Assembly (NCBI RefSeq): GCF_002854065.1
Contig: NZ_CP024147.1
Direction: 5' to 3' (one strand)
Origin: Escherichia coli
Lineage (GTDB): Bacteria; Pseudomonadota; Gammaproteobacteria; Enterobacterales; Enterobacteriaceae
Length of the DNA stretch: 64,000 nt
Positions within the stretch are counted from its first letter, which is position 1; each line of letters begins with the position of its first letter. Below are positions 10,172 to 19,315 of the stretch, one piece after another. Both the position numbers and the translations under genes were made by a program. The notes under the pieces were generated by a model. It saw nothing but the letters and a program-made list of their open reading frames with translations. It made no database searches and had not been told where the DNA came from.

Positions 10172-10879
10172 ATGAAACCCGTCGTGCTGGTGGTGGATGA
10201 TGACACGGCTATCTGCGCACTGTTGCAGGACGTGTTAAGTGAACATGTCTTTACGGTTTCAGTCTGCCATACCGGACAGGAGGCCATATTGCGTATTGAG
10301 GGCGATCCTGACATTGCGCTGGTGGTGCTGGATATGATGCTACCCGATACCAACGGCCTGAGGGTATTGCAGCAAATCCAGAAACTGCGTCCGACATTGC
10401 CGGTGGTGATGTTGACCGGCATGGGCAGTGAGTCTGATGTGGTGGTCGGGCTGGAAATGGGCGCGGATGATTACATCTGCAAACCGTTCACCCCGCGGGT
10501 GGTGGTCGCACGACTGAAAGCGGTGTTGCGACGGGTTGGTGCGCTGGCGGTTAATGACGAGAAAAGCGCCGGGCTGTCATTCAATGGCTGGTATCTCGAT
10601 ACCATGCGCTGCCAGTTGCACAATCCGCTTCAGCAACATGTCGAGTTAACTCAGGGCGAATATGGCTTGTTACTGGCTCTGGCGCAAAACGCGCGTCGGG
10701 TATTGAGCCGCGAGCAGTTGCTGGCGTTCACCCACAGCGACAGCGTGGAGGTGTTTGATCGCACCATCGACGTATTAATCATGCGCTTACGACGCAAAAT
10801 CGAACTCAACCCGCATCAGCCGATGTTGATTAAAACTCTGCGCGGTCTGGGGTATGTCTTCGCTGCCGACGTGCATTAA
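10172..10879 (+). CDS. OmpR/PhoB-family response regulator (receiver plus winged-helix)
   Basis: MKPVVLVVDDD...ALVVLDMMLPDTNG receiver motifs, C-terminal LRGLGYVF wing; GGAG 7 nt upstream of ATG at 10172 (track ORF begins at 10154). Confidence 0.85.
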   Translation: MKPVVLVVDDDTAICALLQDVLSEHVFTVSVCHTGQEAILRIEGDPDIALVVLDMMLPDTNGLRVLQQIQKLRPTLPVVMLTGMGSESDVVVGLEMGADDYICKPFTPRVVVARLKAVLRRVGALAVNDEKSAGLSFNGWYLDTMRCQLHNPLQQHVELTQGEYGLLLALAQNARRVLSREQLLAFTHSDSVEVFDRTIDVLIMRLRRKIELNPHQPMLIKTLRGLGYVFAADVH

Positions 10880-11877
10880 TCCGACATTTCTGTTTGCAGC
10901 TCTTCCAGCGTTTTCGCCCCGTCGATGGCATTGGCGCATAACAGGCTTGCCCGCGCGCAGGCGTGTGCCAGTTTGATGCTCTCGGTAAGCGTCCAGCGTT
11001 CATGGCAGCCATATAAAAATCCGGCACAAAATGCATCGCCCGCGCCGACGCTGCCGATAATTTCCCGTTGTTCTAACTTTTGCGAAGGGATCCACACGCC
11101 GCCCTGTTCTGGGGTCTCTCCCCACGCCCCTTCCGGGCAGTGGATCACCACCCGCTGGCGCACGCCCGCATCTAACAGTTCACGCGCGGCGGCAGCAATA
11201 TGCGCGATATGCGGTTCGCCGTTGGGTAACCGAATTTCCAGCCCGCTAAACTCCCCGGCCTCCAGTTCGTTAATTACCAGATAATCCAGATGGCGCAACG
11301 CGGGCAGCACCAGCGGCTGATAACGCGGATCGCCCTTACGGGAGACCAGGTCGAGTGAGGTTTCAAAGCCAGTATCACGCATTTGCGCCAGCAGGCGTGC
11401 GCTACGGGTGCCGTAAACATCGTCCGGCATATCCAGGCTGTCGAGCAACAGTAAATAGCCGAGATGGAAAATCTTCATGGTGTTATCGAGCTGATCGAAC
11501 GCCGGAAGATCCAAAAGTCTGTTTGCACCCGGCGAATGGAAAAACGTCCGCTGCCCGCTTGGGTCTGTCATCACCTGCGACATCGACGTCGGGGCAAAGG
11601 TAGTGCGCTGCACATGCTGACGATTGACGTGATATTGCTCAAGCATCGCCATGATGTAATCGCCGTCGCTGTCCTGACCGATTAGCCCAACCGCCTGTAA
11701 CGGTAGCCCGGTGCGCATTTTCGCCAGCGTCAGCAGGACGTTAAGCGGCGCACCGCCGGTGGAGCGTTCGCTGTGGGTGATCTCCGCCAGCCAGCCGCGC
11801 TCTGGCCACTGGATAATCTGATGGACGTGGTCAACCAACATATTGCCTGCGGCGATAATCCCTTTACGCTCCATCAT
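10876..11877 (-). CDS. PfkB-family carbohydrate (or sugar-phosphate) kinase
   Basis: C-terminal GAGDAFCAGFLYG, the PfkB/ribokinase signature 2; 333 aa. Confidence 0.8.
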   Translation of the reverse strand: MMERKGIIAAGNMLVDHVHQIIQWPERGWLAEITHSERSTGGAPLNVLLTLAKMRTGLPLQAVGLIGQDSDGDYIMAMLEQYHVNRQHVQRTTFAPTSMSQVMTDPSGQRTFFHSPGANRLLDLPAFDQLDNTMKIFHLGYLLLLDSLDMPDDVYGTRSARLLAQMRDTGFETSLDLVSRKGDPRYQPLVLPALRHLDYLVINELEAGEFSGLEIRLPNGEPHIAHIAAAARELLDAGVRQRVVIHCPEGAWGETPEQGGVWIPSQKLEQREIIGSVGAGDAFCAGFLYGCHERWTLTESIKLAHACARASLLCANAIDGAKTLEELQTEMSD

Positions 11878-16937: not shown

Positions 16938-17050
16938 GGTGGACTCCTGCGAGGTTGTCGATATCAGCACTCCATCACAGGAAAGTAAATGCAAAATGTC
17001 AGAAGCCGTTCATATTTGTCATATTGCGATTTTTCTTCACGGAGCGTGAT

Positions 17051-19315
17051 ATGGCGCACCCCGGACGTCATTTTTTTGCCAGCGCGCGCGGGCGATTGCT
17101 GCTTTTGAATTTGCTGGTGGTGGCGGTGACGTTGATGGTCAGCGGCGTGGCGGTAATGGGCTTTCGTCATGCCAGCCAGATGCAGGAGCTGGTGCAGCAG
17201 CAAACGGTGGATGATATGACCGGCAGCCTGAATCTGGCGCGCGACACGGCAAACGTGGCAACGGCGGCGGTGCGATTGTCGCAGGTGGTGGGAGCGCTGG
17301 AATATAAAGGCGAAGCCGAGCGGTTGCAGGAGACACAGCGGGCATTAAAAAGCTCGCTTGCACAACTGGCGAACGCGCCTTTAGCGCAGCAGGAAGCCGG
17401 GCTGGTGACGCGCATCATCACGCGTAGCAACGAACTGCAAACCAGCGTCGGTGGAATGCTGGAGCGCGGGCAAAGGCGGCATCTGGAGCGCAACGCGCTG
17501 TTAAGTTCGCTGTATCAAAACTTAAGTTATCTGCGGCATCTGCAAAAAGTCACTCACTCGCAAGATGATATTTTGCTTAACGAGATGAACCGACTGATTG
17601 TTGCCGCTATTGCCACCCCCGCGCCGCAGGCGATTATTCATCAACTGGTCGGGGTAATGTCTGCGTTGCCGACCCACAGCGATACGCCGTTGGTTAACAC
17701 GCTACTCAATGATTTTAATCGTGAACTGCGTAAACTCGCGCCGCTTTCAGCCGCTCTGGAGCAAAGCGATCTGGCAATCAGCTGGTATATGTTTCACATC
17801 AAAGCGCTGGTGGCGATCCTCAATGGCGACATCAACCGTTACGCCGAACAGGTGGCGACGCTCTCCGGTCAGCGTGTGGCGCAAAGTTACCAGGATTTGC
17901 GCTCCGGCGAGAGGGTGATCATGATTTTCGCCCTGTTAGCGGTGGTGATCACCGCGTTTGCCGGCTGGTATATCTATCGCAACCTCGGCACTAACCTGAC
18001 GGCGATTTCCCGCGCCATGAGCCGCCTGGCGTACGGCGAAGCGGACGTCACTTTTCCGGCGTTACAGCGGCGTGATGAGTTGGGTGAACTGGCGCGCGCC
18101 TTTAACGTTTTTGCCCGCAATACCGCGTCACTCGAACGAACCTCACGGCTGCTAAAAGAGAAGACCACGCAGATGGAGATTGCCCAAACTGAGCGGCAGG
18201 GGTTGGAAGAGGCGCTATTACACAGCCAGAAACTGAAAGCGGTCGGGCAACTGACGGGCGGGCTGGCCCATGATTTTAATAATCTGTTGGCGGTAATTAT
18301 TGGCAGCCTGGAACTGGTGAACACGGACTCACCCGACGCGCCGCGAATACAGCGGGCGCAGCAAGCTGCCGAACGTGGCGCGCTACTGACCCAGCGACTG
18401 CTGGCGTTTTCCCGTAAGCAGTCCTTACATCCGCAATCCGTTGAACTGAAAACATTGCTGGAAGAGTTAAGCGAATTAATGCGCCACTCCTTACCGGCAA
18501 CGCTGGCGCTGGAGATTGAAGCGCAGTCTCCGGCGTGGCCCGCGTGGATTGACATCAGCCAACTGGAAAATGCCATCATCAACCTGGTGATGAACGCCCG
18601 TGACGCGATGGAAGGGCAGACGGGAATCATCAAAATTCGTACCTGGAATCAGCGCGTTACTCGCAGCAGTGGGCAGCGTCAGGACATGGTGGCACTGGAG
18701 GTCATCGATCATGGCAGCGGTATGTCGCAGGCGGTGAAAAGCCAGGTATTTGAGCCATTCTTTACCACCAAACAGACGGGCAGCGGCAGCGGGCTGGGTT
18801 TGTCGATGGTCTATGGTTTTGTGCGCCAGTCCGGTGGGCGCGTTGAAATTGAAAGCGCGCCGGGGCAGGGGACAACGGTCAGATTACAGCTTCCCCGCGC
18901 GCTGACGGCGGCGAAAAACCTATCGCCAGCGGCAGTAGAACAGGCTTCTGTCAGCGGCGATAAACTGGTGTTAGTGCTGGAGGATGAAGCCGCGGTGCGC
19001 CAGACCATCTGCGAACAGTTGCACCTGCTGGGCTATTTGACGCTGGAAGCAAGCAGCGGCGAACAGGCGCTGGATCTGCTGGCGGCATCAGCAGAAATCG
19101 ATATTTTTATCAGCGATTTAATGCTCCCCGGCGGCATGAGCGGCGCAGAAGTGGTCAATGCGGCCCGCAAACTTTACCCGCACCTGACGCTGCTACTCAT
19201 CAGCGGTCAGGATTTACGCCCCAGCCATAACCCCGCGCTGCCAGACGTGGCGCTGTTGCGCAAACCCTTTACCCGTGCGCAGTTGGCGCAGGCGCTGGGG
19301 CAAATTGAGGGATGA
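17051..19315 (+). CDS. Hybrid sensor histidine kinase (2 TM, periplasmic domain, HAMP, HisKA, HATPase_c, C-terminal receiver; no Hpt)
   Basis: H-box LAHDFNNLLAVIIGSLEL, ATP-lid DHGSGM...GSGLGLSMV, receiver LVLVLEDE...FISDLMLPG; GGAG 6 nt before ATG at 17051. Confidence 0.85.
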   Translation: MAHPGRHFFASARGRLLLLNLLVVAVTLMVSGVAVMGFRHASQMQELVQQQTVDDMTGSLNLARDTANVATAAVRLSQVVGALEYKGEAERLQETQRALKSSLAQLANAPLAQQEAGLVTRIITRSNELQTSVGGMLERGQRRHLERNALLSSLYQNLSYLRHLQKVTHSQDDILLNEMNRLIVAAIATPAPQAIIHQLVGVMSALPTHSDTPLVNTLLNDFNRELRKLAPLSAALEQSDLAISWYMFHIKALVAILNGDINRYAEQVATLSGQRVAQSYQDLRSGERVIMIFALLAVVITAFAGWYIYRNLGTNLTAISRAMSRLAYGEADVTFPALQRRDELGELARAFNVFARNTASLERTSRLLKEKTTQMEIAQTERQGLEEALLHSQKLKAVGQLTGGLAHDFNNLLAVIIGSLELVNTDSPDAPRIQRAQQAAERGALLTQRLLAFSRKQSLHPQSVELKTLLEELSELMRHSLPATLALEIEAQSPAWPAWIDISQLENAIINLVMNARDAMEGQTGIIKIRTWNQRVTRSSGQRQDMVALEVIDHGSGMSQAVKSQVFEPFFTTKQTGSGSGLGLSMVYGFVRQSGGRVEIESAPGQGTTVRLQLPRALTAAKNLSPAAVEQASVSGDKLVLVLEDEAAVRQTICEQLHLLGYLTLEASSGEQALDLLAASAEIDIFISDLMLPGGMSGAEVVNAARKLYPHLTLLLISGQDLRPSHNPALPDVALLRKPFTRAQLAQALGQIEG

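Follow-up and report, generated by a model that had tools for sequence, protein, structure and literature searches.

The stretch of DNA analyzed here (the window) is 64 kb of an Escherichia coli chromosome, running from fdhF, mdtNOP, and yjcS through the phn operon and further. Our subject is a group of eight genes within it, at 10172–19315, in which an OmpR-type response regulator and a hybrid histidine kinase are separated by six minus-strand genes for a PfkB kinase, an aldolase, an isomerase, a binding protein, a permease, and an ATPase (Table 1). The locus is the LmvK/LmvR (RbfS/RbfR) two-component system of island OI167, together with its lmuKAIZYX mannose/lyxose operon, in this case in a non-O157 E. 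coli; the identification follows from near-identical proteins, the same gene order, and the presence of the LmvR box. A full-text search with EDL933 locus tags led to the papers describing the system: Yang et al. (mBio 2023) named LmvK/LmvR and lmuKAIZYX for this gene set (PMC10128022), a PNAS 2022 paper treated the same pair under the names RbfS/RbfR (PMC9860305), and a 2024 review united the two accounts (PMC11644481).

Table 1. Features of the lmvR–lmvK locus, with positions in the window (ORF, open reading frame; PGAP, Prokaryotic Genome Annotation Pipeline; ABC, ATP-binding cassette)
Feature	Position	Strand	Basis or remark
lmvR (rbfR), OmpR-type regulator, 235 aa	10172..10879	+	Pfam Response_reg 1.9e-25 and Trans_reg_C 4.2e-22
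LmvR Asp54 codon	10331..10333
lmuK, PfkB-family sugar kinase	10876..11877	-	ORF; PGAP 'carbohydrate kinase family protein'; weak PfkB-family NCBIfam matches
lmuA, class II ketose 1,6-bisphosphate aldolase	11874..12734	-	NCBIfam NF005284, E 3.5e-174, above curated cutoff
lmuI, D-lyxose/D-mannose isomerase	12749..13432	-	NCBIfam NF051472, E 3e-132, above curated cutoff
lmuZ, RbsB-like periplasmic sugar-binding protein, candidate co-sensor	13487..14428	-	NCBIfam RbsB 1.1e-43, TorT 5.7e-11
lmuY, ABC transporter permease	14447..15421	-	NCBIfam ribose-type permease 1.5e-80; PGAP annotation
lmuX, sugar ABC transporter ATPase	15418..16937	-	Frame ends at 15618 owing to a 1-bp deletion near 15691
Divergent lmuX/lmvK control region	16938..17050		113 bp
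LmvR box, direct repeat ATATGA-CAA-ATATGA	17010..17024	-	Motif match
lmvK (rbfS), hybrid histidine kinase, 754 aa	17051..19315	+	Pfam; PGAP 'hybrid sensor histidine kinase/response regulator'
LmvK periplasmic sensor domain, residues 38–287	17162..17911	+	All-helical, TorS-sensor-like fold
LmvK HAMP, residues 309–357	17975..18121	+	Pfam, E 4.6e-7
LmvK kinase core	18245..18898	+	HisKA 399–458 (4.2e-7), HATPase_c 501–616 (1.9e-21)
LmvK C-terminal receiver, Response_reg residues 640–749	18968..19297	+	Pfam, E 1.9e-10

LmvR is identical at 235/235 residues to the protein of O157:H7 strain TW14359 (WP_000805929.1), and LmvK matches its TW14359 counterpart at 743 of 754 residues (99%), the only gap, of 3 residues, falling in the periplasmic domain. 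The order lmvR–lmuKAIZYX–lmvK between yjcS and yjdP is the same in the window ORFs and in the CUWW06 and TW14359 annotations; this order, the insertion site, and an LmvR box in PlmuX are shared with the OI167 system of O157 strain EDL933. The window differs from that system in its host (non-O157, with the wastewater isolate CUWW06 as the nearest genome), in a frameshifted lmuX, in an additional acetyltransferase gene 3′ of lmvK, and in a kinase that lacks the ‘DFN’ repeat, 3 residues long, seen in the O157 allele. At LmvK residues ~221–227 (about 17710–17730), the window reads NDFNREL and O157:H7 reads NDFNDFNDEM, a 3-residue insertion in the latter's sensor domain; the O145:H28 kinase allele is equal in length to that of the window.

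The hybrid-kinase system and the puzzle posed by its missing histidine phosphotransfer (Hpt) domain are both already known. The mBio 2023 paper terms LmvK ‘a hybrid type of HK’ with H410 and D692 (EDL933 numbering) and describes LmvR (D54) and LmvK as ‘separated by six genes’; the puzzle is in print there because the model figure has LmvR phosphorylated by LmvK ‘via an unknown Hpt’ (PMC10128022). The original prediction, made from the sequence alone, was right in its interpretation, which is not new. What this study adds is the absence of Hpt across the family, the loss of a PAS domain, a TorS-like sensor fold with a conserved binding-protein partner, and a wide spread outside enterohemorrhagic E. 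coli (EHEC). In E. coli O157:H7, the system ties type III secretion to the sensing of sugar and reportedly also of riboflavin, and the signaling route therefore matters for the regulation of EHEC virulence. On that route the two papers diverge, one reporting direct transfer in vitro (PMC9860305) and the other drawing the Hpt step (PMC10128022). Our comparative data suggest that the linked binding protein may belong to the sensor.

The kinase gene starts with ATG behind a GGAG ribosome-binding site. Two hydrophobic segments of LmvK (~16–37 and ~288–308) flank the ~250-aa periplasmic domain, the H-box LAHDFNNL carries His407 (codon 18269–18271), and the receiver motif FISDLMLPG carries Asp689 (codon 19115–19117). 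A Pfam search of the protein for an Hpt domain returned none, finding only HAMP, HisKA, HATPase_c, and Response_reg, and likewise no sensor-domain family; the stop codon follows residue 754, 5 residues past the end of the receiver. The best NCBIfam groups for the kinase core and receiver are PRK13557 (4.7e-95), CckA (6.8e-90, with a second CckA model at 6.7e-74), and VirA-like (1.9e-64), and the top PDB sequence match, 5idj (3.9e-40, deposited only as ‘Histidine kinase’), is followed by CckA 5idm (5.3e-23). For LmvR, the best NCBIfam families are OmpR and then VirG. All of these domain E-values lie far beyond chance, and the kinase core is, by sequence comparison, CckA/VirA-like. These searches agree with the original prediction on each structural point: a hybrid kinase with two transmembrane helices around a periplasmic domain, then HAMP, a CckA-like H-box, an ATPase domain, and a receiver; no Hpt module in the 754-aa protein; a conventional OmpR-type protein beyond the sugar operon as the only regulator nearby; and a divergent promoter region of the extent given in Table 1.

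Relatives of the kinase were sought with the sensor half of LmvK (residues 1–371) against 1.84 billion cluster representatives, and 21 near-full-length relatives (728–898 aa) were aligned. Pfam finds PF01627 (Hpt) in 0 of 22 diverse kinases; PF10090 (ChpT-type) gives one weak match (E 6.5e-3) in one of the 22, the ChpT screening itself having covered loci only. The receiver residues E644, D645, D689, K738, and P739 are almost invariant across the 22 relatives. Separately, species-representative genomes were scanned with a binding-protein alignment, which recovered relatives in 272 species; the best 80 loci, examined here, span Citrobacter, Enterobacter, Kosakonia, Raoultella, Cedecea, Atlantibacter, Leclercia, Lelliottia, Buttiauxella, and other genera. 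Among those with enough flanking sequence, the kinase is present in 72 of 73, the regulator in 64 of 67, and both in 59 of 62. Wherever a receiver was found in these 80 enterobacterial loci, the kinase stops 0–19 residues past it, with no C-terminal extension. A hidden Markov model (HMM) built from five E. coli K-12 Hpt domains (ArcB, BarA, EvgS, TorS, and RcsD) found nothing below E = 0.4 in 12,068 six-frame ORFs from 91 loci plus the whole window, its sensitivity to very divergent Hpt folds being limited because the positive controls were the training sequences. Precomputed Pfam annotations of neighbor genes likewise hold no PF01627 in the relatives' neighborhoods examined, the contigs of L008, L010, L011, L099, and L100 being too short to carry neighbor genes.

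The same eight-gene module occurs in Citrobacter (kinase 82% identical) and in a second contig (61%), and a rearranged form occurs at 36% kinase identity; in the distant relatives L013, L101, and L102, the genes for the OmpR-type regulator and the kinase are directly adjacent or overlapping. An OmpR-type regulator is thus linked to the kinase throughout the family, and the domain and HMM searches argue that the family has no dedicated Hpt protein anywhere.

The alignment also leaves LmvK without ~108 columns between HAMP and the H-box, with the junction at about residue 376/377 (nt ~18179), where 19 of the 22 diverse relatives carry a PAS_7 domain accounting for ~108–115 extra residues. A PAS domain is found in 32 of 72 enterobacterial kinases, including those of Kosakonia, Raoultella, Cedecea, Atlantibacter, and Buttiauxella; the 40 without it include those of Escherichia, most Citrobacter, Enterobacter, Lelliottia, and Leclercia. 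Judged from these alignments, the form of the kinase in Escherichia, Citrobacter, and Enterobacter has lost a cytoplasmic PAS_7 domain. The possibility that the additional ~115 residues of the 860–900-aa relatives represent a C-terminal Hpt domain lost in E. coli was considered and rejected, as the alignment shows them to be this internal PAS_7.

A fold search with the LmvK periplasmic domain gave the sensor of TorS as the best match, which points to a double four-helix-bundle fold on model-based grounds; the HBM-type chemoreceptor McpS also matches the sensor model. Sequence comparison of the domain with solved structures, from the single sequence and from a 22-sequence profile, was uninformative, since de novo helical bundles and coiled coils were all that matched. 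The binding protein LmuZ shares 47–52% identity with the binding protein whose gene lies within the regulatory operons of L012 (order kinase–binding protein–regulator) and L013 (binding protein–regulator–kinase), and 27–30% with the binding proteins of the adjacent transporters; by sequence, LmuZ is the ortholog of the former. Across 80 loci it is the most conserved protein of the module (92–100%), and the kinase sensor domain outside Escherichia is 59–79% identical. This conservation and linkage suggest that binding protein, kinase, and regulator may form a three-part sensor. Six Raoultella or Raoultella-like loci (L046, L069, L073, L074, L089, and L090, with L074 labeled Enterobacter sp. 10-1) and that of Phytobacter massiliensis (L093) lack lmuI, lmuA, and lmuK; these loci keep the kinase, the two transporter genes that were scored (lmuY and lmuZ), and the regulator, whose gene stands directly after the binding-protein gene.

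The motif ATATGA-N3-ATATGA has one perfect match in the window, on the lmuX strand inside the divergent region. It corresponds to the perfect direct repeat found by DNase I footprinting of LmvR at PlmuX, the lmuX transcription start having been mapped by 5′ RACE (PMC10128022). The pattern [AC]TATGACAAATATGA is kept in the kinase–lmuX intergenic region of 62 of 73 enterobacterial loci, and 2 more have a variant within two substitutions. A scan of 16850–17150 for the sigma-70 consensus found no promoter, which is consistent with an activator-dependent promoter. When up to three mismatches were allowed, 62 matches to the LmvR box were obtained against 39 expected, individually not distinguishable from chance. 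Three such overlapping 3-mismatch matches lie in the AT-rich segment 10081–10103 upstream of lmvR; the segment might be an autoregulatory site, but no claim is made for it, as the matches cannot be separated from chance.

Published experiments bear on both transfer and sensing. Purified kinase autophosphorylates and transfers phosphate to purified regulator in vitro, riboflavin increased the autophosphorylation of purified RbfS, and rbfSR alone on a plasmid conferred the response in Citrobacter rodentium and in EHEC O26, O111, and O103 (PMC9860305). Deletion of lmvK or lmvR lowers lmuKAIZYX expression on mannose and impairs growth on lyxose, and neither H410A nor D54Q (EDL933 numbering) complements; fructokinase activity is reported for LmuK (PMC10128022). 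The responses to mannose/lyxose and riboflavin and the kinase-to-regulator phosphotransfer are published for EDL933 only. The lmvR gene is itself reported to be inducible by mannose and lyxose, and LmvR was phosphorylated with acetyl phosphate for electrophoretic mobility shift assays.

Among characterized systems, the closest parallel in signaling logic may be VirA/VirG/ChvE of Agrobacterium. VirA is a hybrid kinase without an Hpt domain; its kinase histidine passes phosphate straight to the OmpR-type VirG, its receiver is modulatory, and it senses sugar at its periplasmic domain through the ABC-transporter binding protein ChvE (PMC4705274). Like LmvK/LmvR, it pairs a membrane-bound hybrid kinase that has a C-terminal receiver and no Hpt with an OmpR-family regulator; the VirA-like NCBIfam model covers both the kinase and the receiver of LmvK, placing the two in the same kinase-core subfamily. 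The two periplasmic domains have no detectable sequence similarity, and whereas the cytoplasmic linker of VirA senses phenolics, LmvK has only HAMP at that position and its relatives HAMP plus PAS_7. Direct His-to-Asp transfer, the role of the receiver, and a binding protein acting on the periplasmic domain are thus features of VirA, which by analogy may extend to LmvK and LmuZ. TorS/TorT/TorR, which responds to trimethylamine N-oxide in E. coli and Vibrio, resembles the present system in other respects: its locus encodes an RbsB-fold binding protein, TorR is, like LmvR, OmpR-type (36% identity), and TorS and LmvK share the order of two transmembrane segments, sensor, HAMP, kinase, and receiver. 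However, TorS continues into a C-terminal Hpt and a four-step relay where LmvK stops after the receiver, its kinase core belongs to another subfamily, and LmuZ matches TorT at the HMM level only, with no BLASTP-level similarity. The tripartite type as a whole (TorS, ArcB, BarA, EvgS) shares with LmvK HisKA, HATPase, and a receiver with the conserved Asp, but not the C-terminal Hpt. CckA of Caulobacter and Brucella is the best sequence match for the LmvK core and receiver and is also a hybrid without a fused Hpt; it relies on the separate phosphotransferase ChpT, whereas the loci screened show no linkage of LmvK-type kinases to a ChpT-like or Hpt gene, and the sensor, regulator, and biology of CckA–ChpT–CtrA differ from those of LmvK/LmvR. 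We know of no ChpT-like phosphotransferase in E. coli.

In the mechanism we favor, LmvK would autophosphorylate on His407, autophosphorylation itself being published, and the phosphoryl group would pass directly to Asp54 of LmvR with no Hpt step, as published in vitro and as we propose in vivo. Phosphorylated LmvR (LmvR~P) would then bind its box at 17010–17024 and activate lmuX–K, and in strains positive for the locus of enterocyte effacement (LEE) also ler. Asp689 of the receiver would not be a relay station but an intramolecular modulator or phosphate sink, as in VirA, and input would arrive via the TorS-like helical periplasmic domain, probably with sugar-loaded LmuZ as co-sensor. The original prediction had listed recruitment of a distant Hpt, a phosphate-sink receiver, and direct transfer; this was the right set, and the published evidence favors the last. 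The reading with the best support, and probably the correct one, is direct His407-to-Asp54 transfer with the receiver as modulator, because the in-vitro result, the transplantable rbfSR pair, the family-wide lack of a linked Hpt, the overlapping genes, and the precedent of VirA all point to it. Several observations nevertheless weigh against it. In hybrid kinases, the tethered receiver usually wins the kinase over a free regulator, and in TorS, whose overall architecture is the nearest, phosphate moves through a His-Asp-His-Asp relay. The catalytic residues of the receiver are kept family-wide, and the LmvK receiver is therefore probably phosphorylated. The transfer assay used a 1:10 ratio of kinase to regulator, and the main text of that paper gives no kinetic or specificity control and does not include the kinase construct (PMC9860305). 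Deletion of lmvK left LEE expression unchanged in DMEM (Dulbecco's modification of Eagle's medium) and deletion of lmvR altered it, so LmvR has other phosphodonors. The authors of the mBio study, finally, themselves draw an Hpt between the two proteins (PMC10128022).

Their model is a four-step relay, from His407 to Asp689, to an Hpt of the core genome (RcsD, ArcB, BarA, TorS, EvgS, or an unrecognized one), and on to Asp54 of LmvR. It would account for the intact LmvK receiver with its conserved catalytic residues and for the TorS/TorR-like architecture and regulator (25% identity over 454 aa, regulator 36%; PMC9860305). Core proteins bearing Hpt domains are present in every host in which rbfSR worked, and an in-vitro assay described without kinetic controls leaves room for such a step. 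We nonetheless regard the relay as unlikely: a tripartite kinase keeps its Hpt domain tethered, and such domains are not known to act on the receivers of other proteins. Neither the 91 loci nor the 22 diverse relatives contain a fused or linked Hpt, and as the module is horizontally mobile, an Hpt dedicated to it should have moved along with it. In distant relatives, the regulator and kinase genes overlap, and purified kinase and regulator suffice in vitro (PMC9860305). Far less probable still is that LmvK and LmvR are no dedicated pair, with LmvR driven mainly by acetyl phosphate or cross-talk and the LmvK receiver as a terminal output. The LEE phenotypes in DMEM and the use of acetyl phosphate to phosphorylate LmvR would fit such an arrangement, but the reduced lmuKAIZYX expression on mannose and reduced growth on lyxose upon lmvK deletion, and the failure of H410A to complement, would not. 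Kinase and regulator moreover co-occur in 410 of 410 kinase-bearing E. coli genomes and in the 59 of 62 loci across genera, their genes overlap in distant relatives, and an LmvR box lies next to the kinase gene in 64 of 73 loci. Genetics and co-occurrence together effectively exclude a non-cognate pair, and the pairing implied by the original prediction is plausible on the same co-occurrence and linkage data.

The nature of the input is more evenly contested. The published account of sensing may be complete as it stands, the periplasmic domain of LmvK itself binding mannose/lyxose and/or riboflavin and LmuZ serving transport only; we hold this to be a serious contender, at somewhat under even chances. 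The reported response of purified RbfS to riboflavin alone (PMC9860305) speaks for it and against a co-sensor role of LmuZ, as does the report that deletion of lmuKAIZYX left mouse colonization unaffected when deletion of lmvK or lmvR reduced it (PMC10128022). Crystals of McpS, which also matches the sensor model, contained malate or succinate bound in the ligand-binding domain, and no gene for a binding protein lies nearby in L101 or L102. Set against direct sensing, the best fold match, TorS, signals via the binding protein TorT; in L012 and L013 the LmuZ ortholog lies within the regulator/kinase operon, apart from a transporter equipped with a separate binding protein; and binding protein, kinase, and regulator occur together in 59 of 62 enterobacterial loci, including Raoultella loci without catabolic genes. 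We advance, tentatively, a three-component system, which the published data do not require, in which LmuZ would be the ligand receptor, docking on the TorS-like domain, and LmvK would signal to LmvR directly with its receiver as a gate, as in VirA. Such a system would be an ancestral sugar sensor widespread in Enterobacteriaceae, PAS_7-less in its Escherichia/Citrobacter/Enterobacter form, which EHEC has co-opted for LEE control, rather than a riboflavin sensor specific to EHEC.

The distribution of the module extends well beyond that previously described. Both papers report the system as essentially confined to EHEC O157:H7/O145:H28 and O55:H7 (PMC9860305, PMC10128022). The module is present in 410 of 5426 complete E. 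coli genomes (about 8%), each kinase-bearing genome having at least 80% of the 9.5-kb locus, and the carriers include 4.6–5.0 Mb isolates from wastewater, chicken meat, pig, pigeon, and goat. Confinement to EHEC is thus corrected: the module occurs in E. coli from many sources and in many genera of Enterobacteriaceae.

Compared with strain CUWW06, lmuX is frameshifted by a 1-bp deletion in a run of CCC; the remaining top matches listed are 9502 bases long where the query has 9501, in keeping with this 1-base difference. The frame breaks after VAIG, immediately ahead of Walker B in the second nucleotide-binding domain, and the final 90 codons survive intact in a different frame. Either the gene became a pseudogene recently or the sequence contains an error; the kinase, regulator, and binding-protein genes are intact.

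Between lmvK and yjdP, the window carries a 633-bp gene (19428–20060, +), annotated by PGAP as an N-acetyltransferase in CUWW06, for which an NCBIfam search gave no match; it is missing in O157:H7 TW14359, where yjdP stands directly after lmvK. Further elements score above the Rfam gathering threshold elsewhere in the window: a SECIS_2 selenocysteine insertion element at 2187–2241 (-), the small RNA STnc630 at 38053–38218 (+), and naRNA4, an element of the repetitive extragenic palindromic type, in four tandem copies with a 100-bp period at 32007–32383 and in a fifth copy 2.5 kb off, at 29451–29531.

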